A DNA stretch of 64,000 nucleotides from an uncultured Actinomycetes bacterium (lineage in GTDB: Bacteria; Actinomycetota; Thermoleophilia; UBA2241), in NCBI GenBank assembly GCA_963725665.1, contig CAVRZA010000002.1:256001-320000 (forward strand), in the 5' to 3' direction. The notes beneath the pieces are model-generated. The model was not told where the DNA came from, made no database searches, and saw only the letters and a list, made by a program, of their open reading frames with translations. Shown piece after piece: positions 25,530-64,000 of the stretch. How positions within the stretch are numbered: the stretch's first letter is position 1; the number at the start of each line of letters is the position of its first letter. Made by a program: the position numbers and the translations under genes.

Positions 25530-28500
25530 TCACCCGGTCCGACCCGGCCGCGTGCGGGGCTCGACGACCGGCAGGTCGTCAAGCCCCTCGGCCGGGTCGG
25601 CCTTCGGCCAGCGGTGGTCCTGCCGTGAGGGTGCGGGGTAGCGCGGGTCGGGCGCCATCGGCCCGAGCCAGGGGCGTTCCGGCGGCGGTCCCGTGACCGG
25701 AGGGTGCTCTCCTCCCCCGGTTGTGTGGCGGTCGCCGCGCGGGAGGGTGCCACGGTCGCGGGGGGCCGACGGGGCGGTCGGTCTCTGGACGGTCGAGCGG
25801 CTTCCGTTGCCCGCTCCTCGCTTGAGGATCCCCGGGTCCCTGATCGCGGCCATGAGATCGAAGATGCGCTGCGCGACGACGGCCAGGCCGCGCTCGTCGT
25901 TGTTCTGCAGCTCGCCCTCGACGAGCAGGTAGACCGTCTCCTTAAGCAGCTTGCCGTAGCGCAGGAAGACGTCGTTGAAGACCACCACCTCGGCCATGCC
26001 GGTCTCGTCCTCGAGGGTGAGGAAGAGGGTGCGGTGACCGGAGCGGATCCAGGGCATCTGCGCCCGCTCGAGCACGCCGGCGAGGCGGATGCGCGTGCCG
26101 TCGCGCACCTCGACCAGGCGCGCGAAGGGCACGCAGCGCAGGCGCCGCATGCCCTCACGCGCGAAGGCCAGCGGGTGGGCGCTCACGTTGAGGTGCAGCA
26201 CCTCGAGCTCGGCGCGCACGCGGTCGGCGTCGCTCCACGAGGGGATGAAGGGCATCGGCGCCAGCTCGTCGTCGACGACGAGCGCCGTCTGCGCCGATGG
26301 GTCGGGGTTCGCTGGGCCTGCGGGCGGGGCGGGGGTCTCGGGGGGGCGGCCTCGCGGTGATAGACCTGCGGGTGGGGGTGGGGCCTCAGGACGCCCGCTC
26401 GCGCCTGCGGCGCTCACTAAGCGTCCTTCGACCCCACCCCCACCCTCCGGCCTGCGCGAGTCGCGCACTGAGTCCCCGCCCTCCGGTTCCCGTTTGGCAA
26501 CCACCCACCGGGGCAAGCCGACGTCGCCGGACGGCGACCGCTGCAGGGAGCCGGGCTTCACCCCCATGACGCGGGCGTGGATGAGCGGCACCTGCACGAG
26601 GAGCTCCTCGCGGCGCACGCCGAGGGCGTCGAAGGCGCCCACGCGCACCAGGTTCTCGACGATCTCGACGCTCACCCGCGTGCGCTCGCAGAAGTCGCCC
26701 AGCGAGCGGTAGGGTCCGCCGTTGTCGGGCGCGCGCTGCGCGATGATGGCCCGCATCGCCGCGCCGCTCATCTCCTTGACGTACTTGAGGCCGACGCGCA
26801 GCGCGCGCCCGTCGTCCTCGGGCGAGAAGCCGGGTTCGCTCAGGTTCACGTCCAGAGGCCGGATCGCGAGGGGCCAGCGACGCGCGTCGTTGAGCACCAC
26901 GCGGGGCGAGTAGAAGCCCATCGGCCAGTTGTTGAGGATGCCGCAGAAGAACTCGGCCGGGTAGTGCGCCTTGAGCCAGGCGCTGGCGTTGCAGACGACG
27001 GCGAAACAGGCGGCGTGCGCCTTGTTGAAGCCGTAGGCGGCGAAGCCGCGCAGCTGGCGGAAGACGTCTTCGGCGGTCGCGCGCTCGACGCCGTTGGCGA
27101 CCGCCTTCTCGACGAACAGGCGGCCGAGCTCGTCCATCTCCTCCATGGAGCGGTCGTGCGTCATGGCGCGGCGCAGCATGTCGCCCTCCGACAGCGAGAA
27201 GCCGGCGATGGCCGAGGCGACCTCGATGACCTGCTCCTGGTAGAGGATGACCCCGTAGGTGCGCTGCAGCGCCGGCCACATGGCGGCGTGCAGTACGGCG
27301 GCGGGCTCCTTGCCGTGCCGGCGCCTGATGAAGGGTCCGATCATCTCGGCCTGCAGCGGCCCCGGGCGAAAGAGCGAGATGGCGGCGATCACGTCTTCGA
27401 AGTCGCGCTCGCGCAGGCGCGTGGCCAGGTTGCGCTGCCCCGAGCTCTCGAGCTGAAAGACGCCCACTGTGCGCGCCTCGCGTATGAGCTTGTAGACCTC
27501 GGGATCGTCGCGCGGCAGGGTCCAGGGGTCGATGCGCTCGCCGGTGCGCGCCGCGATGCTTGCCACGGCCTCGGCGATGGCGGAGTGCATCTTGAGACCC
27601 AGGATGTCCATCTTGACGAGGCCCAGCGTCTCGACGTCGTCCTTGTCGAACTGGGCCACGATCACACCCTTGGCCGCCCACTGCAGGGGCACGCGGTCGG
27701 TGAGCCGCTCGCGGGCGAGGATGAAGCCGCCCAGGTGTGTACCCAGGTGCATGGGGTAGCCGGCGAGGCGCTCGGCGAGGGCGACGAAGCGGCTGTAGTG
27801 CGGGAGCTGGAACTCGTGGTCGGCGAGCTCGGGGCGCTCAGCGACCATCTCGCCGAGGTTGGAGGCGCTCCCCCAGGGGACGCGCCGGGAGAGGCGGTTG
27901 ACCTCGCCCGGGGTGTGGCCGAAGGCCTTGGCGACGATGCGCACCGCCGAGGGTGCGTGCACGGTGTTGACGGTGGCCACCATGGCCACCTTGTCGTGGC
28001 CGAAGCGCTCGTAGATGAAGGCGATGACCTCGTCGCGGCGCGCGGAGTCGAAGTCGATGTCGACGTCGGGCATCTCGCGCCGGGAAGGATTGAGGAAGCG
28101 CTCGAAGAGGAGGTCGTGCGCGATGGGGTCGGCGTCGGTGATGCGCAGCACGTAGCTCACGATGCTGTTGCCGGCCGAGCCGCGGCCCGAGTAGAGGATG
28201 CCGCGGGCGCGCGTGAACTCGACGATGTCGCGCACGGCGAGGAAGTACTCCGCGAAGCCGAGCTCCTCGATCACCTTGAGCTCGCGGTTGAGGCGGTCGA
28301 GCACCTCGGGCGTGAGCGGGTCGTAACGCTCCTGGGCACCGGCGAAGCAGTGCTTGCAGAGGAGCGAGAAGGCGGTCTCGCCGGGCGGCAGGGGATAGGC
28401 GGGGAAGAGGAGCTGCCCGAGGCCCAGGTCGAGGGTGCAGCGTGCGGCGATGCGTTCGGCGTTGCGGTAGGCCTCGGGGTGGCGGCGGAGGAGGCGCCAC

Positions 28501-29770
28501 ATCTCCCCCGGTGACTTGAGGAAGAGCTCGGCGTTCTTGCGCCCGAGCGGGTTGGGGAGGGGCTGGTTGGCGGCCTCGGCGGCGAGGATGTCGTGCAGCG
28601 GCGCGTCGGCCCGGGTGACGTAGTGGACGTCGTTGGTGGCCACCGTCGGCAGGCGCAGCTCGTGGGCGAGCAGGTCGAGCTCGCGCAGCAGCTTGTCGGA
28701 GTCGGGCAGGAGCTCGTGCTGGAGCTCGAGGTAGAAGTTCTGCGGGCCGAAGGTCTCGGCGAGGCGCGTGGCGGCTTGCCGGGCGCCGTCGCGATCGCCC
28801 TGGAGGAGGAGGGAGGCGACCTCGCCGCGGCGGCAGGCCGAGAGGGCGATGAGGTGGTCGGCGTGCTCTTTGATGGTGGCGAAGCGGGCGAGGGGCGGCT
28901 CGCCGGGGTGCTCGAGGTGCGCGGCGCTGATGATGCGGCAGAGGTTGGACCAGCCGGCGGAGTCCTTGGCGAGGAGGATGAGGTGGAAGCCGCCGGCGGT
29001 CTGGGCGGCGAGGGAGGCGGGGGGGACGGTGGCGGCAGACTTGAGGTGGTGGATGGCGTAGACGGCGTCGGGTCGGGGTCGGCCGGGGCGTCGTCGGATC
29101 GCGGCGCTGAGGGCGGGGAGGGGGCCTTCGCCCCTCGATCGTCAACCGGGGGCGCTGCGGGCGGGGCGGGGGCCTCAGGAGGGCGGCTTCGCCTCCTTCC
29201 GGCCGCGTCTTCGTCGCGGCCTCCAGAGCCTCCTTCGACCCCCGCCCCGCCCTCCGCGCCGCGATCGTCAACCTCGCGTGCGGCGACCCTGTACTCCCCT
29301 TCGCACCACGATCGTCAACCGCCTCCGCACCCCCGTCGTGAACCCCGCCCTCCACACTCCCCTTTGAAGACCCGGGGGCCGGCGCGACTCCAGCGCCCGG
29401 CGGCGCGCCGCCGGGTCACCTCCGCCGGCCGGCCCCTCGCGCCGGTCGTCAACCCTCGGGTTGACGACCGACGAGGTCGCACCAGGTCCGGTGTAGTCAG
29501 GGCTGGCAACAGCGGCGTTTTCGGCCGATTTTCCGGCTCGCCGTCGGCGTCGAGCACCGACTCGACCGTCAGCTCGACGCCGACGATCGGCTTGATGCCG
29601 GCCTTCTGGCAGGCCTCGTAGAAGCGCACCGCTCCGTAGAGGCCCTCGTGGTCGGTGACGGCGAGCGCCTTCATGCCCATCGCGCGTGCCGCATCGACGA
29701 GGTCGTCGATGCGGCACGCGCCGTCGCCGAACGAGAAGTTGGAGTGGACGTGAAGATGGACGAAACCCAA
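25530..29770 (-). CDS. dnaE2: Error-prone DNA polymerase III alpha (DnaE2) with frameshifted low-complexity insertion at ~29000-29530
   Basis: HLHVHSNFSF.DGA, AVTDH, VGVEL PHP; GRGSAGNS, PDVDIDF, KMDILGL, YGFNKAHA, WPMGFYSP; LexA box upstream. Confidence 0.85.
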
Positions 29771-30873: not shown

Positions 30874-31486
30874 ATGGCGGGTGTAGAAAGGAGCGATGCA
30901 AGCGAATCTGCGCCCAGGCGGGGTGATCTGCACACGCGACCAAAGGTCGTGGCGCTCGTCGGCAGTCCGCGCCGAGGCGGCAACACAGCATTCGCGGCGG
31001 GTGTCGCTACGGAAGAGCTCGAGCGTCGCGGCGTCTCCTGCGAGACGATCGAGCTCTCCGACCTCCCGCTGTTCCCCTGCGGCATCGACCCAGGCCGAGA
31101 GACGCCACCGCGCGCCGCGGACGATGTCGAGGCGCTGCTCGACAGAGTGTGGGCCGCAGACGGACTCATCCTGGCGACGCCGGTCCACTTCTGCAACGTG
31201 AGTGCGCAGATGAAGGCGTTCATGGATTGCACGAACGATCGCTACCTGAACCGAGCAGTGGCTCACGCCGAAGATCGTCGGCCTGCTCGTCATCGGGGGA
31301 CAAGGTGGCTTTTCGGACACCGTCGCTGCGTTGCGTCGCTACCTCGACTTCATGGCACCGTCGCAGCCCCCGGTCGAGGTGGCGAGCGGTCATGCCGACG
31401 CTCGCGGTGAGGCGCAGCGGTCCGCAGAGGTCAAGGCGTCAGTCCGGGCGATGGCAGCACGCATGGCCGACGTCCTTATGGGCTGA
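30874..31486 (+). CDS. Flavodoxin-fold NADPH-dependent FMN reductase family protein; frameshift near 31253
   Basis: VALVGSPRRGGNT, ADGLILATPVHFCNVSAQMKAFMD; C-terminus continues in the next frame to TGA 31486. Confidence 0.7.
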
Positions 31487-31850
31487 TAGCCGGAACGGGC
31501 GTGTCGGCGCACGAGCCGGCTCGTCGAGAGGCCCGGCTTGGGCAGCCCGCCATGGGAACGCAGGCCGCTGCGGCGGGCTGTTGAGTAGGTGGCCGCCGCC
31601 GGGCACGGCTTGCGCCTCTGTCTCCTTGCGAGGGTTCAGGACGGATTGGCGCTGGTTCGGGGTAGAAGAAGAATCAGTCTTCAGGATGATGCCGCTCGCC
31701 GTGTGCACAGCTCGTCATGAGGGCCGTAGCGGCACGGTGCGTGGACCCAGCCGGTCGGCGGAGGCGAATTCCCTGGGGTGGTCATCAGTTGAATGACCGA
31801 AGGCTCCCTCGACGACGGGTTCTCGAGACGAGACTCGACGCAGTTGGTCC

Positions 31851-33323
31851 TCACCCCACCCCGCGCTCGCGGTCGGCGCGCTCGACGATGGCGTGCACCT
31901 GTCTCGCGATGTCGGGATCGAGCGGGTCGGGCTTGTGCGTCTCGAGGATCTCGAGGGCGCGCGCGTGAGCGCGCGCGTAGGCGTCCGTGGCGCCGTCGGC
32001 CTCCCACTCCTCGCGCACGCGCCGATCGCCCACGCGCGGGTTCGACTGGGCGCGCATGAAGCGATAGGTACTCGCGAGGCTCAAGAAGTCGCCGAACGGC
32101 CCTACCGACTTGATGTCGTCGAGCATCAGCATCTCGGCGTCGACGCGCACGCCGCCGATCACCTGCTTGATCATGGCCGCCCACTCGTCGTCCATGACGA
32201 GCTGGGCGCAATCGAAGGTGACTCCCGATTCGGTCATCCCGGCTCCGTAGATGACGTTGGCTCCTGCCAGCGCCGCCATCAGGCCGGTGAGCGTCTTCTC
32301 GTGACCGATCTGCGCGTCACCGAGCTTGGAGTCACCCTACGCACCGGCGATGAAGCTCGGCAGGCGGTACTGTCTGGCGAGCTGCGCCGCACAGGCGCTG
32401 ATCAGAGCCAGTTCCGGTGAGCCGACGGCGGCAGCCGCGAAGCGCAGATCGAGCGCCGTCGTCGAGGAACCGTAGACGCAGGGCACGCCGCGCTGGGTGA
32501 GCTGCGTCAGCGTGATGCCCGACAGGACTTCCGCGTTGTGCTGCACGAGCGTCCCGGCGAGCGTCACCGGGGCCGAGCCGCCCGACATGGCCATCGAGAG
32601 GGTGGTGCAGGCGAGGCCGGCGCGCGCGGTCTCGATGATGACCTCGGTGGCGTCGCGCGTGAGCTGGAGAGGGCTCACCGGGCAGACGCCGAGGCCGAGG
32701 ATCGGCCTTTCGCGCAGCTCGTCGTGGCCGCCGGCGACCGTCGCCGCCATCTCGATGCAGGTGCGCGCCTCCCAACCCGTCACGGCCTCGCAGCCGGTGT
32801 GCTTGGTCGTGTTCGTGAGCGCCGCCTCGAGGCCGTGGATCGAGGCCGTCTCGCCGGGTACGTCCTTGGGGCCGACGGCCGACTCGTAGACGGCGATGTT
32901 GGGCAAAGCGTCGATGAGGCGGGCGACCTCGGCCACGTCGCTCTTGGTCGGGTCGCGGTACTCACCCGTGCGCGGGTCGATGTACTTGATGCCCTCGTCG
33001 AAGTTGGTGAAGTGCACCTCACCGCCGGCTTCTTCCCAGATGTCGTGCTCGGGGTTCCGACCGGCGCAGAAGACGCGTGGAGGGCAGGAGGCCAGCGCCT
33101 CCTCGATCACCTCCGGCGGGAAGCGCACCACGTGCGTCTCGCGGTCGATGTCGCAGCCTCCGTCGGCGAGGATGTCGAGCGGCTCGTCGTCCTCGACGAA
33201 CACCCCCGTCTGCTCGAGGACCTCGAGGCTGCCTTGGTGGATCTGTCGCACGGCGTCATCGCTCAACACATCCAGCCTCAGGCCGGCGCCGGCGACCGTG
33301 CTCAGGTCTGCGTCAGCTCTCAT
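31851..33323 (-). CDS. mttB: Pyrrolysine-containing trimethylamine:corrinoid methyltransferase (490 aa with TAG read-through at 32337-32339)
   Basis: [45 protein letters not shown] continues in frame; SPL and APVTLAGTLV.HNAEVLSG motifs. Confidence 0.92.
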
Positions 33324-33424
33324 GCTTCTCCCCCTGTACCGTCGTCGCCCGCGGGCGTCGCCGTCGGGCCGAAGTGGCAGCTATGGGACAAGCATACCGC
33401 TCTGGGCGCGGCAGGCGTCTCGCG

Positions 33425-34096
33425 CTACGCCGATGAACGGGCGGGTTGCGGGGGCAGCGTGTAGAGACGCAGGGCCGTCAGCAACACCCAAAGCAGTAGC
33501 GGCATGGCCATCGCCCGCTGGGTCAGGCCGAGGAAGTCGGTGTGCGTGGTCAGCGCCATGGCGATCGACGCGGCTGTGCCCAGGAGCGCGAGCGCAAGCG
33601 AGGGGCGGTGGTACGAGCGCCAGTGCTCGTCGTGGCGAAAGTGGATCGAAAGCAGGAGGGCACCGAGGATCAGGCAGCCGTAGCCCACGCTGGCCATCCA
33701 GGCGTGGATGTCGCCGCTCACCGTGTGTGTGACCGATCCTTTGATGTCGGTCGGGAAGGCCGCGGCCACGAAGGTGGCCGCGGCACACAGCGCCAGCAGG
33801 ACGAGGCCCGAGCGCGAGAGCAGCGTGGCGCGCAACCGCCGCCAGAGGCCGTGCTGGAGCGCCAGAAGGCCCACGCCCAGGACGACGAACGCGGATACCT
33901 GGATCCACCCGTCGCGTCCGACGGCGAGCTCGCTGACGGTGCGCTGCACCGGGTCGTACATGGGTCGCAGCAGCTCGGCCACCGACACGGCGGCCACGAA
34001 GTAGAGCACGGCCACCACGGCGACCGCGGCGAAGAGAGTCGTGAACCACGGGTGACGAAGCGCCTGCAGGCGGGACGTCCGCAGGAATGAGGTCAC
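33425..34096 (-). CDS. DUF998-family membrane protein
   Basis: YDPVQRTVSELAVG, FPTD, IH, GLTQR pattern. Confidence 0.75.
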   Translation of the reverse strand: MTSFLRTSRLQALRHPWFTTLFAAVAVVAVLYFVAAVSVAELLRPMYDPVQRTVSELAVGRDGWIQVSAFVVLGVGLLALQHGLWRRLRATLLSRSGLVLLALCAAATFVAAAFPTDIKGSVTHTVSGDIHAWMASVGYGCLILGALLLSIHFRHDEHWRSYHRPSLALALLGTAASIAMALTTHTDFLGLTQRAMAMPLLLWVLLTALRLYTLPPQPARSSA

Positions 34097-34366
34097 AGCA
34101 CCTTCCTTACCGTGTCGACGGGTCCATTCTTCTATCGGCTCCCAGGGTCCGTACCTCGACCCTGGGCGCCCATCGAGACGGTCGTCGACGGCTCGCTCTC
34201 ACGGGACGGGCCGGCACGACCTGAATGCCGGCTCGTCTCACGGCATCGCATGCTCTCACATCGGGCGGTCTACGAAGAACACCGGGGTATGCCCGCGGGG
34301 GCAGGCAGGCGGGGGGCGCGATCGCGAGTAGTCCGGGGAGGCCGCCGCGGGTATTCTCCAATCGAG

Positions 34367-46503: not shown

Positions 46504-47202
46504 GTGAACGACGGCAAGAGCAGGGTCGGTGGGCCTGGCGAGCGGGTGCCGGCGATGTCCGACTCCAGGACGAGCACCGTTGCGGAGCGCATGCCGTCTG
46601 CGCCCGTGCTCAGTCCGGCCGCTTCCCTGCCCCCGACGGCGCTCAAGATTCTCGAGGCGGCCAAGAAGCTGCTGGCGAGCAAGGGCTATGAGGCGCTGAC
46701 CCTCGAGAGGATCGCCGCCAAGGCCGGCGTCAACAAAGCCTCGACGCGCTACTACTTCGGGAGCAAGGCCGGTCTGCTCGAGGCGATCGTCGATGAGATC
46801 GTCCTCGACGAGTGCGCCCATATGGGGCGCAGCGTCTCGCCCGACGCGCCGCTCGAGGAGCGCGTCGACGGCTTCATACAGGGCGTGCGCAGCATGGCCA
46901 CCGATCCCTCGTCGTTCGGCGGCTTCTACGACATCCTGCCGCGCGCGCTGCGTGACCAGAACTTGCGTGCGCGACTGGTGCGCCTCTACGAGGTCTGGTA
47001 TGCGTGGAACCTGGAGTGGCTGGTGCTGGAGCACGTCGAGAATGAGTCGCAGCGCGAGCAGTTGGCGGCCATAGGACAGCTCACGGCGGCGATCATCGAC
47101 GGTATCTCCGTCCAGGCTTCGATCCACGGCCGGGAATACGATCCCGAACCCACCCTCGAGACGCTCAGATACTGTCTGCTGACGGCGTTGCGCCAGCCGT
47201 AA
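46504..47202 (+). CDS. TetR/AcrR-family regulator
   Basis: ILEAAKKLLASKGYEALTLERIAAKAGVNKASTRYYFGSKAGL HTH. Confidence 0.9.
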   Translation: MNDGKSRVGGPGERVPAMSDSRTSTVAERMPSAPVLSPAASLPPTALKILEAAKKLLASKGYEALTLERIAAKAGVNKASTRYYFGSKAGLLEAIVDEIVLDECAHMGRSVSPDAPLEERVDGFIQGVRSMATDPSSFGGFYDILPRALRDQNLRARLVRLYEVWYAWNLEWLVLEHVENESQREQLAAIGQLTAAIIDGISVQASIHGREYDPEPTLETLRYCLLTALRQP

Positions 47203-47438: not shown

Positions 47439-48851
47439 GTGAGCGAGATCCTGACGCGCATGGGCGACGGCTACACGGTCGTCATGACTCCCGATGAGGT
47501 GAGGGCCGACCTGGTCGCCGGATCGGAGGACGCCGCCAAGCGGGGCAAGGTCCCCGTGCTCGAGGAGTCGGAGTTCGACTGGCTGTTCGACCTCTTCGCC
47601 AATCCGAGCCGCATCATGGGCGTCGAGCGGGGGCACGAGATCATCCTCACCAAGGACGGCTCGGTCAACACCCTGTACTCGGCGCAGCTCTCGAGCGGCG
47701 TCGGTCTGCCACTGAGCCGCGAGCAGGCCTTCCGCGTCTTCGAACGGGCCTTCTGCTTCGACACCATGGAGATCGGGCATCCCGACTACTCCTTCAAGCC
47801 GGTCAAGGCGATCGTCGCCCTGGAGGCGACCGGGGTCGAGCAGGCGCTGCACGGCACCATCATCCCGGTCTTCTACGGCGCCATGCCCAATTTCGGGCTC
47901 TACGCGCGGCCGGACGGCCCCTTCCCCAACCCCGCCGACCTGCTGCCGAAGGGGCAGATCGCTGAGGCGCGCGAGGCCCAGATGGAGATGGCCGAGATGT
48001 GCCGCGACGACATGGTCTACGTGAGCAAGAAGATGGCGGCGGTGGGGGCCGACGGCATCAATTTCGACACGACCGCCTCAGCGGGCGACGCGGAGTTCCT
48101 CGCCACGCTGCAGGCGGTCGAGGAGCTGGCCGAGAGCACCGACCTCGCGATCGAGGTGGGGATGGCCGCCGAGATGGTGCTCGGCTTCCACGGCCAGCTC
48201 GACTACGACGGCAAGAAGCTCGCCGGCATGTGGCCGCACCAGCAGGTGAAGGTCGTCGAGAAGGCCGGCGCCCATCTCTTCGGCCCCGTCGTGAACACCA
48301 ACACGCGCAAGAGCACGCCCTGGAACGTGGCCCGCGCGGTGACGTTCGTGAAGGAGTGCTCGAAGGTGGCCGAGATCCCCATCCACGCCAACGTCGGCAT
48401 GGGCGTGGGCGGCGTGCCCATGTACGAGATACCACCCGCCGACGTGCTCACGCGTGCGTCGGCGGCGATGGTCGAGATCGGCCGCGTCGACGGGTTGTAG
48501 GTCGGCACGGGCGATCCCTACGGGATGTCCGTGAGTCACGCGCTCGCCTCCGGGATGGGAGGCATCCGCACCGCTGGAGACCTGGTGGCACGGATGCAGC
48601 TCCGCAAGATGAGACTGCGGGAGGCGAAGGAGTACGTGGCCGAGAAGCTCAAGGTGAGCGTCTTCGACCTCGCCGACTCGACCGTGATGCGCGGGCTGCG
48701 GGAGGAGCTCGACATCGGCGTCATCACCGCGGTGCCGGGCTGCGCCAAGGGGCTCGAGGCCAAGGCGCGCATCGCGGACCTGCTCGACATCGAGATCAAC
48801 TCGGTGAAGCGGCTGTTCGACAAGGCCGGCGCGACCAAGGCGAGCCGGTAG
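47439..48851 (+). CDS. mtbB: Pyrrolysine-containing dimethylamine:corrinoid methyltransferase (470 aa with TAG read-through at 48498-48500)
   Basis: [34 protein letters not shown]; [41 protein letters not shown]. Confidence 0.92.
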
Positions 48852-49111: not shown

Positions 49112-50653
49112 ACATGGCTGCCAATGGAGGCATGGAAGGTCGGCCATCCACCAGGCTGCCGAGGGCAGCTGGCCGGTCCTCCCGGCAGAACGCAACTGGG
49201 GTCTCGTCGGCATCTTCGGCGTGACCATCTCGGCGGGCATCGCCGCCTGGAGCTACGCCATCGGCGGCGCGGTGTCCTGGTATCTCGCCGGCGCGCTGGG
49301 CACGATCGCCATGATCGCCGGCGCGCTCGTGGGCATGTACTTCGTCACTCTGTCGGCGATGCCCGTGAGCACCAAGTACGGCATCGACACCATCGCCGCC
49401 TGCAAACCGCAGTACGGTAACCGCGGTTTCGGCTTCGGCATCTTCGCTCAGTACGCCTCGATCGTGGGGTGGAACTGCATCCTCATCATCCTGTTCGGCA
49501 GAGCCACCGCCAACGTCCTCAACGCCGGCGGCTGGCTGCCCGACAGCTGGGTGTACACCGTCTCCGTGATCGTCTCCCTGGCCACGATCGCCTACTGCTA
49601 CTACCTCGTGATCGGTGGTGCCGATTCGATCCGCAACAACTCCATCTGGATCGCCGTCGCCGTGACCATCGCCGGTCTCGTCGTGCTGGTGCGTCTGCTG
49701 CAGCAGTACGGCTGGACCGACATCGCCAACGCCAAGCCGGCCTACGCCTCGGGCGACCTGCACCTCGACTACACGCTCGGCTTCGAGATCCTCGTCGCCA
49801 CGGTGCTCTCTTGGTGGCCCTACATGGGCGGCATCATGCGCATGAGCAAGAGCGTCAAGCAGGCGCTCCTGCCCTCGATGATCTGCCTCGGCATGATCAC
49901 CGGCGTGATTGGTCTGATCGGCCTCTACGCCGGACTTGCCACGGGCGACCCCGACCCGTCGATCTCGTTCGTGAAGGTGACGGGGCTCTGGATGGGCATC
50001 ATCGCCGTCGTCTTCATCGGCCTGGCCAACGTCGGCACGGCCATCGTCGGCGTCTACGCCACCTGCATCGGGCTCAAGCAGATCCCCGCCTTGCAGTACC
50101 GCCTGACGTGGAAGTGGACGGCCGCCATCGTGCTGGCTCCGGTGGCCTTCATCGCGGCGGTACTCCCCAGCGCGTTCATGAATCACAGCCTCACGTTCAT
50201 GTACTTCCTGGGGCTGCTCTTCGCGCCCATCTGCGCCATCGGGATCGTCGACTACTACCTCTTCCGGCGCCAGAAGCTCGACATGGTGGCCCTGTTCGAC
50301 AACTCGGTGCGGAGCAAGTACGGCTTCTGGGGCGGCGTCAACCCCGCGGCCTTCATCGCCGTGGCGGTCGGCTTCTTCACCTACTGGTACCTGCTCGACC
50401 CCGTGACCTACGTGAGCCACTGGACCGCCGGCTTCAGGTGGATCAGCGCCTCGTTGCCGTCGCTCCTCACGTCGGCCGTCGCGTACTGGGCGGTGACACG
50501 TCTCGTGGTGATCCCGCTCAAGAAGGGGGCTACGAGCGCTACTTCGCGACGCCCGTCGCGGCGGCGCCGGCAGGCGCGGTCTCCGGCTCGGAGCCGGCGA
50601 CGCTGTCGTCCGTCGGCCCCGAGGGACCGGACGGCGGCGCGACCGTGGACTGA
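49105..50653 (+). CDS. NCS1 (cytosine/purine/allantoin) family permease; frameshifts near 49141 and 50526
   Basis: PVLPAERNW, KYGIDT...YG.RG, APICAIGIVDYYL.RRQ, Y.FWGGVNPAA; about 12 TM helices. Confidence 0.8.
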
Positions 50654-50711
50654 CAAAAGGAGTACCAGCCGGAGTGAGGCACGTAGCCTGCTGGCTGGAG
50701 AAGAGCGTCGA

Positions 50712-50759
50712 GCGACGGCGCCGCGGGGGGCGTTCCGCCCTCCGCGGCGCCGTCGCTTT
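50712..50759. terminator. Intrinsic terminator between convergent permease and ALDH genes
   Basis: GCGACGGCGCCGCGG...CCGCGGCGCCGTCGC followed by TTT. Confidence 0.7.
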
Positions 50760-50779
50760 CGGCGTCCCTAGATGGCCGC

Positions 50780-63455: not shown

Positions 63456-64000
63456 TCAGATCGGGGCCGCCACGCCACAGATGGCGGCGAGCTCGACGAG
63501 CTGGTCCGCGCTCAGGCCGGGCCGACGGTCGGCGCGCGCCGCCATGACCCTGTCGATCACGGCGCGCGCCGCGTCGTCCTCGGTCGCGCCGCTCTCCTGC
63601 CACCTCTCGTATGAGAGCCGATTGGCGATCTGCGGCAGGAAGTGCTCGCCGGCGCGCGCGCGCCGCGCCGTCTCCTTCTCGCGCAAGAAGTCGCCGCCGA
63701 TACCGGCGCGCGCGAACGCGTCGGGCATGATCGACGACTTCGAGACCTCGACCTCGCTCAGCATGCGGCGGACCATGAGCGCGATCTCGTTGTCGATGAC
63801 GATCTGGGGCAGGTAGAGCGCGCTGGACGAGTCGATCAGCCCCCATCCCGACACGAGGTCCGGGTTGGCGGAGCACACGGTGAGCGCCTTCAGCGCCTTC
63901 TCGTAGCCGGCCTGGATACCCGGGTAGCGCGCGTCGGTCGACATGGCGGGGTTCATCGTCGGCACGCCGAGGTAGTGTCCGACCTCGGTCGCCGCCGCGC
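63456..64000 (-). CDS. MttB-superfamily (non-pyrrolysine) methyltransferase, C-terminal part
   Basis: YLGVP...MSTDARYPGIQAGYEK, QIVIDNEI, GGDFL, RLSYERW; Ser at the Pyl-equivalent position. Confidence 0.8.
   Translation of the reverse strand, partial: AAATEVGHYLGVPTMNPAMSTDARYPGIQAGYEKALKALTVCSANPDLVSGWGLIDSSSALYLPQIVIDNEIALMVRRMLSEVEVSKSSIMPDAFARAGIGGDFLREKETARRARAGEHFLPQIANRLSYERWQESGATEDDAARAVIDRVMAARADRRPGLSADQLVELAAICGVAAPI

Follow-up and report, generated by a model that had tools for sequence, protein, structure and literature searches.

The mttB gene and its surroundings

The window, i.e., the whole stretch of 64 kb analysed here, covers C2:256001-320000 of a metagenome-assembled genome of 3.73 Mb, which comprises 12 contigs with 68% GC and is estimated to be 97.5% complete with 5.0% contamination. 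Its minus strand carries mttB, a gene of 490 codons for a predicted pyrrolysine-type trimethylamine:corrinoid methyltransferase (31851..33323). Under the standard code (table 11), an in-frame TAG at codon 329 (32337..32339, minus strand) cuts the frame into two ORFs of 328 aa (32337..33323, minus strand) and 142 aa (31851..32279, minus strand). The 328-aa ORF starts with ATG, the start codon of mttB being located at 33323, and a Shine-Dalgarno-like motif GGGGGAG, read by eye, is found 4 nt 5' of it (33328..33334, minus strand). Reading through the TAG yields one product of 490 residues, whose sole non-standard step is O329 and which ends at TGA 31851-31853. This agrees in every detail with an earlier note on this DNA, which had described the ORF as split at the TAG and the frame as running on to the TGA. 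The codon is preceded by the residues SFIAGA, the context AG-x-O-x-D-x-K...GHEKT is kept, and GC3 is 0.91 on the upstream side of the TAG and 0.90 on the downstream side.

The read-through protein matches the NCBIfam equivalog TIGR02369 (trimeth_pyl) over profile positions 2-469 of 469 with 660.4 bits, which is 135 bits above the cut-off of 525, and Pfam PF06253 (MTTB) with 324.4 bits. Best solved structures are the M. barkeri chains 7xcm_A (E 8.6e-116) and 7xcl_A (E 5.3e-115), with residues 13-489 aligned against 14-495. Opposite the TAG, 7xcl_A shows X334 in the context AGSXSDAK, which denotes pyrrolysine (Pyl). The PDB search scored 390 bits to this Pyl enzyme versus about 231 bits to the non-Pyl relatives 2qne and 9yce. 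By profile and UAG site, the window MttB belongs to the Pyl-type trimethylamine (TMA) methyltransferase family, and TMA activity is predicted.

In full-length alignment, Pyl site and the motifs AG-x-Pyl-x-D-x-K and GHEKT, our MttB is alike to the M. barkeri enzyme (7XCL/7XCM/7XCN, pyrrolysine 334). It differs in that the host is bacterial and rich in GC, that the window copy is not located beside mttC, and that the methyl group here probably ends on tetrahydrofolate instead of coenzyme M. Members of the non-Pyl MttB superfamily (glycine betaine methyltransferase type; 2QNE, 9YCE) share the fold family and are devoid of the TAG.

The Rfam model RF02510 (PYLIS_3, 'pyrrolysine insertion sequence mttB') matches at 32240..32339 on the minus strand with 64.2 bits (gathering score 38), and its position 1 is the U of the mttB UAG. 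Together with the alignment to X334, this bears out the claim of the earlier note that the TAG occupies the catalytic Pyl position of MttB. Several PYLIS_3 model pairs are non-standard in our gene, and the 100 nt 3' of the TAG show no greater stability than stretches of that length elsewhere in the gene (z -0.02); across five Pyl mttB genes, z ranges from -0.26 to +1.63. A PYLIS-like hairpin after the mttB TAG was thus dropped, and we regard the PYLIS_3 match as a sequence marker of the site and claim no working hairpin. In an RNAalifold consensus of eight mtbB post-TAG regions, the covariation term was positive, i.e., unfavourable.

Upstream of mttB lies a DUF998 gene, and on the downstream side the DNA is weakly coding over about 2 kb; a further neighbor is an MFS transporter gene in divergent orientation. 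No corrinoid-protein gene adjoins the window mttB, which is thus an orphan copy, whereas two of its Pyl-mttB paralogs have one. A scan of positions 31300-34300 for promoter and terminator consensus sequences found none, and no tRNA gene was detected inside the 64-kb window. One 151-nt contig from an RNA library (metatranscriptome) touches mttB at 32186-32333, which proves neither transcription nor decoding.

The window contains a second Pyl gene, mtbB (dimethylamine methyltransferase), at 47439..48851 on the plus strand, with a TAG at 48498-48500. Its read-through product matches PF09505 with 663.5 bits, and Rfam PYLIS_2 matches with 78.4 bits at 48498-48597. Just 5' of mtbB lies a gene for a TetR/BetI-type regulator (46504..47202, plus strand; PF00440 and PF13977), possibly a substrate-responsive repressor. 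The TetR operator candidate CCACC-N2-GGTGG has no exact match in the window and five one-mismatch matches against 3.7 expected, none of which is located 5' of mttB or mtbB.

Pyrrolysine genes of the genome and their distribution

The pyrrolysine machinery maps to contig C6. The genes pylB (C6:345979-347001; 448.3 bits, NCBIfam cut-off 348.2), pylC (C6:344775-345908; 338.7 bits, cut-off 248.3) and pylD (C6:343844-344635; 211.6 bits, cut-off 150.05) are followed by pylT (C6:343702-343774, ARAGORN), which encodes tRNA-Pyl (cta). All four are arranged in the order pylB-pylC-pylD-pylT on the minus strand at C6:343.7-347.0 kb, with pylT lying 56 nt after pylD. The synthetase genes pylSc (C6:296347-297081; 314.6 bits, cut-off 178) and pylSn (C6:298938-299198; 119.9 bits, cut-off 51) are found at C6:296-299 kb, about 47 kb from pylBCD-pylT. 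The tRNA comprises 73 nt and has the anticodon CUA. Its acceptor stem measures 7 bp and its anticodon stem 6 bp, a single base separates the acceptor stem from that of the short D arm, position 73 is G, and the CCA is encoded. Such features are hallmarks of tRNA-Pyl. The pyl genes (C6) and the window (C2) lie on different contigs of an assembly with an estimated contamination of 5%.

The components by which a pyrrolysine-decoding organism is recognized, i.e., pylT with CUA, PylSc plus PylSn, and pylB, pylC and pylD, are all present. With each of these genes above its curated cut-off in a genome that is 97.5% complete, gene content argues for the proposal of the earlier note that this organism decodes TAG as Pyl. 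A gene for release factor 1 (RF1) is retained as well (490 bits, cut-off 423). Selenocysteine machinery also occurs in the genome, besides the Pyl system.

Fourteen methylamine methyltransferase genes carry a TAG at the Pyl site, namely five mttB, eight mtbB and one mtmB. When the window MttB was searched against the genome by tblastn (31 HSP rows), five places contained exactly one stop, i.e., the window gene and four others with 50-59% identity, and 24 mttB-like places without a stop were assigned to the non-Pyl MttB superfamily. PF09505 identified the eight mtbB genes with one TAG each, including the copy in the window, and PF05369 identified the single mtmB with its TAG. In all 14 genes, the TAG lies inside the conserved motif of the family and is followed by G, and it falls in the same column in 5/5 TAG-bearing mttB genes. 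Since mttB, mtbB and mtmB each contain the codon, Pyl enzymes are encoded for every step from TMA via dimethylamine and monomethylamine to ammonia. Cognate partners of MttB, i.e., corrinoid proteins and reductive activases, are present genome-wide and none is located beside the window copy: The genome contains 13 loci for corrinoid proteins, and two of these immediately follow other copies of Pyl-mttB; it also has two genes for RamA-type activases and three genes of the URO-D family. TetR genes flank the window mtbB and one other mttB.

We searched for further Pyl proteins among 442 ORFs that end in TAG and whose frame stays open for at least 40 more codons. Nineteen have a paralog spanning the TAG, namely five mttB, one mtmB and 13 others. 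Of the latter, a single one is conserved on both sides of the TAG, an integrase gene (C1:513708-514217, minus strand), whose TAG looks like a nonsense mutation or a read-through of unclear meaning; the remaining candidates were rejected.

Moving from the genome to its family, the window MttB has an ortholog at E <= 1e-200 in 8/39 genomes (65-71% identity). Each of these eight genes contains exactly one TAG, and in a codon alignment with the window gene the codon occupies the same column in 9/9 sequences. Relative to the window mttB, dN/dS is 0.36-0.49 upstream and 0.36-0.60 downstream of the TAG; mttB is thus as constrained after the codon as before it. The end-to-end match to TIGR02369, the position of the TAG on X334 and the column shared by paralogs and orthologs together place the read-through frame beyond chance. 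TIGR02369 exceeds its cut-off in 36/40 family genomes, and among the matches listed (150; 104 more exist), 147 have one TAG and three have none.

PylSc occurs in 83 of 401 sampled genomes of the class: 73/79 genomes of the same family, 9/61 of one other family and 0/260 of the remaining ten families. The tRNA gene pylT was found in 33/39 family genomes (88-94% identity), and in relatives it lies 1.4-6 kb from pylSc. A PylSc search of genome contigs returned three loci only, the closest PylSc sequences being labeled 'uncultured Actinomycetes bacterium' (65%), 'uncultured Thermoleophilia bacterium' (62%) and 'uncultured Eubacteriales bacterium' (49%). Both nearest labels fall in the Actinomycetota, and the first of them belongs to a genome of the same family, since its matches have the coordinates of those in family genome G032. 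The high GC content named by the earlier note (68% in the assembly) and the actinobacterial origin that it had considered probable are thus supported, the origin at the phylum level.

The systems of Desulfitobacterium hafniense and Acetohalobium arabaticum exemplify the bacterial split-PylRS type. Our genome resembles them in separate pylSn and pylSc genes, pylBCD, pylT with CUA, and the retention of RF1. It differs in the gene order pylB-C-D-T, in the distance of 47 kb to pylSc and pylSn, and in the phylum, Actinomycetota. Bacterial systems of this type are cited in the excerpts of PMC9630628 and PMC9723677.

The earlier note named methanogens, some Firmicutes and deltaproteobacteria as the best-known users of Pyl; its occurrence in Actinobacteria is already published. 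Two of the 81 bacterial PylRS genomes in the excerpted table of PMC9630628 are Actinobacteria ('Thermoleophilia_bacterium' and 'Actinobacteria_bacterium_ADurb.BinA094'). That part of the source holds no PylSn entry for either of them, whereas PylSn is present here. According to the excerpt of PMC10805028, Actinobacteriota MAGs of a thawing permafrost mire express Pyl-encoding mttB and mtbB; the term 'pylS' is absent from this paper. These published cases, compared by description on the basis of a table entry (PMC9630628) and one sentence (PMC10805028) in the excerpts, share phylum and trait with our genome. A full-text literature search for pyrrolysine in Thermoleophilia returned no relevant paper. 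Pyl in Actinobacteria and Thermoleophilia being already published, the window mttB is a further case.

TAG as stop codon and as probable pyrrolysine codon

For a census of stop codons, we selected 2009 long ORFs with a strong GC3 signal from the genome of the window. TGA ends 55.2% of them, TAG 39.2% (788) and TAA 5.6%. Back-up stops are not in excess, as the next in-frame stop follows within 10 codons after 12.5% of TAG compared with 15.7% of TGA. An example of an ordinary gene with this stop is tuf (C2:97787-98995). Translation past its TAG would continue for another 130 codons, through the entire rpsJ in the same frame, and give rise to an EF-Tu-S10 fusion. With RF1 encoded and about 39% of ordinary genes ending in TAG, the insertion of Pyl must be partial or gated. 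Unrestricted Pyl decoding would be costly at this share of TAG stops without back-up stops.

The stop shares of relatives were derived from 400-kb samples with the same crude ORF filter. Among Pyl-positive genomes, TAG makes up 38.3% of stops in G008 (n=175 ORFs) and 34.2% in G253 (n=202); among Pyl-free kin, it makes up 23.6% in G002 (n=199), 29.1% in G014 (n=234), 26.0% in G007 (n=196) and 27.7% in G015 (n=191). The share is thus 34-39% in Pyl-positive genomes (n=3, the genome of the window included) and 24-29% in Pyl-free kin (n=4), a comparison of seven related genomes with a standard error of about 3% each. Higher TAG use in Pyl-positive than in Pyl-free kin is therefore a lead, not a result.

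This pattern in the few genomes sampled is the reverse of the archaeal one. In Pyl-positive archaea, TAG accounts for 1-27% of stops with a median of 5% according to the excerpt of PMC12626013, against about 39% here. TAG is still a common stop in Pyl bacteria, as in our genome. In the excerpt of PMC9723677, a TAG share of 21% is called 'unusually high' and typical of such bacteria; the 39% found here exceed this value of roughly 21%.

Competing readings and the predicted methylamine pathway

Judging from sequence evidence, we put the probability that the mttB of the window is intact and has its UAG decoded as pyrrolysine at about 0.93. The strongest rival accepts a functional Pyl enzyme and holds that the orphan copy acts on a methylated amine other than TMA, the five mttB copies having split the substrates among them. 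Its advocates could point to the identity of just 50-59% to the other TAG-bearing paralogs, to the corrinoid gene that adjoins two paralogs and not the window copy, and to the restriction of orthologs at E <= 1e-200 to 8/39 family genomes. Moreover, some copies of relatives have Leu (CTC) at the Pyl position while scoring above the Pyl equivalog cut-off, which is evidence of a diversifying family. We nevertheless consider a different substrate unlikely in view of the 135 bits by which MttB exceeds the cut-off of the TMA enzyme, and of the AG-x-O-x-D-x-K...GHEKT context, which it shares with the TMA enzyme of known structure.

A pseudogene, in which a nonsense mutation would permit at most a fragment of 328 residues, is in accordance with the standard code, which stops at codon 329, and with the missing corrinoid partner alongside. 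Such decay would hardly place the TAG exactly at the catalytic Pyl column in 9/9 aligned sequences, preserve equal dN/dS (0.36-0.60 after the codon) and a downstream GC3 of 0.90, and coincide with a full Pyl machinery in the genome, so that this reading is highly improbable. Even less credit is due to an error of the long-read metagenome assembly. In the window, the frames of dnaE (28.6-29.3 kb) and of an mttB of the non-Pyl type (about 1.0-1.1 kb) are broken, which suggests indel errors and thus an imperfect base accuracy. However, these breaks are indels and not substitutions, and the same TAG recurs in independent assemblies of eight other species. Four public runs were matched to mttB as assembled contigs (three DNA, one RNA library), none of which covers the whole gene. 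Contigs of the three DNA runs, from samples labeled freshwater sediment and peat, bridge the TAG with 90-99% likeness. None of the differences listed (40 of 93) falls on 32337-32339, which argues weakly for the amber codon. Pseudogene and assembly error are thus effectively excluded. A genome-wide reassignment of every TAG to pyrrolysine, as in some archaea (an archaeal code of this kind is cited by the gTranslate paper, PMC13695967, in its excerpt), would be in line with the large set of 14 Pyl genes. It is next to impossible to reconcile with TAG as the end of 788/2009 high-confidence ORFs without enriched back-up stops, with the presence of RF1, and with tuf, where reading on for 130 codons would join EF-Tu and ribosomal protein S10.

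Pyrrolysine is made from two lysines by PylB, PylC and PylD. The split synthetase PylSn plus PylSc charges tRNA-Pyl(CUA), which then competes with RF1 at UAG. Applied to our genome, the product of PylBCD would be loaded onto tRNA-Pyl by PylSn and PylSc and inserted at the mttB UAG against RF1. By analogy with the M. barkeri enzyme, Pyl329 in the TIM-barrel active site of MttB would bind and orient TMA, and the methyl group would be passed to Co(I) of a corrinoid protein encoded away from the orphan mttB. The resulting dimethylamine may be processed by the eight Pyl-MtbB enzymes, and monomethylamine by the single Pyl-MtmB. A methyltransferase of the URO-D family would unload the methyl-corrinoid, while RamA-type activases would repair the cofactor. 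As the most likely gate on Pyl insertion, we propose that the pylBCD-pylT unit and the methyltransferase genes next to TetR genes would be transcribed conditionally, since TetR genes flank the mtbB of the window and one other mttB, and pylT sits behind pylBCD.

Anaerobic TMA demethylation, as put forward by the earlier note, stands in part. Acetyl-CoA synthase (CdhC domain, C2:411109-411567), which also occurs in 3/4 relatives of the family and in 0/2 from other families, fits an anaerobic use of methyl groups. On the other hand, COX1 (heme-copper oxidase, 536 bits) is located about 7 kb from another Pyl-mttB, beside genes for Rieske/cytochrome b and complex I. With acetyl-CoA synthase and heme-copper oxidase both encoded, the anaerobic lifestyle is half supported.

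Taking these lines together, we tentatively suggest that this peat and soil family of Actinomycetota is the most TAG-rich user of Pyl known, that it tells Pyl UAG from stop UAG, and that it maybe runs its Pyl enzymes while respiring oxygen; the combination of all three is a possibility rather than an expectation. If true, the distinction could be achieved by a strictly conditional expression of pylBCD-pylT or by an unrecognised context signal, and the lineage would be a natural model for bacterial life with an ambiguous codon. That a genome holds 14 Pyl genes and still relies on TAG for a large share of its stops sharpens the question of how bacteria manage the ambiguity of UAG.

Gene callers split the 14 Pyl genes in two, such that the methylamine metabolism of the lineage is under-counted. 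From its gene content, an abundant actinobacterial family of peat, sediment and soil seems equipped for the demethylation of trimethylamine, dimethylamine and monomethylamine. As these compounds are substrates of methanogens, the family may compete with methylotrophic methanogens.

Use of TAG as a stop codon and layout of the pyl loci

TAG accounts for 39% of the stop codons in the whole source genome (G000). Among the few genomes sampled, its share is 34-39% in the Pyl-positive G000, G008 and G253 versus 24-29% in the Pyl-free G002, G007, G014 and G015; as an oddity, TAA reaches a share of 32% in G014. Genes ending in TAG include tuf, encoding EF-Tu (G000:C2:97787-98995, outside the window). 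Since the next in-frame stop follows only after 130 codons, read-through of this TAG would join EF-Tu to ribosomal protein S10.

On contig C6, 47 kb separate pylBCD-T from pylSc/pylSn in the source genome; in relatives, pylT and pylSc are 1.4-6 kb apart. Genes for a corrinoid protein and a radical-SAM protein lie between pylSc and pylSn (locus L016:9145-10875, G000:C6). At a distance of 1.2 kb from pylT, a partial duplicate (G000:C6:342469-342504) preserves its 3' half, positions 38-73, with 94% identity, and may represent an integration or rearrangement scar at the tRNA gene.

mtbB and interrupted genes of the window

The second Pyl gene of the window is an mtbB (47439-48851, + strand; PF09505, 663 bits with read-through) with its in-frame TAG at 48498-48500 (+), preceded by a TetR gene (46504-47202) and followed by a cytosine/purine-type permease gene (49221-50771). 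Rfam PYLIS_2 matches this mtbB with 78.4 bits. Each of the eight mtbB copies of the source genome is more stable in the 100 nt following its TAG than elsewhere in the gene (z between -0.9 and -3.2). However, no net covariation supports the consensus hairpin of these eight copies, which is located within strongly conserved coding sequence. One of the eight copies (G000:C2:503975-505331) is matched by Pfam in two pieces, one base apart, near profile position 402, which is a frame change besides the TAG of that copy.

Within the window, other genes are interrupted. dnaE (25530-29770, - strand) is found in two parts, the start with the PHP domain at 29315-29770 and the remainder at 25530-28643, separated by a 0.67-kb stretch of 74-76% GC; an insertion is a possible explanation, and an assembly frame error the probable one. 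A non-Pyl MttB-superfamily gene (581-1976, +) lies in two frames, and its break near 1000-1100 is a frameshift or assembly error. Another non-Pyl member (63456-64000, -) extends beyond the window edge.

Leucine at the Pyl site, an in-frame TAG in an integrase-like gene, and selenocysteine genes

Three MttB copies of relatives, L173 (G134:C4:793900-795400) as well as L174 and L175 (both on G331:C4), carry Leu (CTC) in place of the TAG of the other copies, and all exceed the Pyl equivalog cut-off. A recent replacement of Pyl by Leu seems to have given rise to them, and they may act on a new substrate.

An in-frame TAG also occurs within an integrase-like gene of the source genome (G000:C1:513708-514217, -), with conservation on both flanks and R or S at this position in paralogs; it could reflect a nonsense mutation or read-through. 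Finally, the source genome encodes tRNA-Sec and selB (G000:C11:550041-550138 and C11:543952-545106; selB at 315 bits vs a cut-off of 242), and thus the organism probably employs the 21st amino acid as well as the 22nd.
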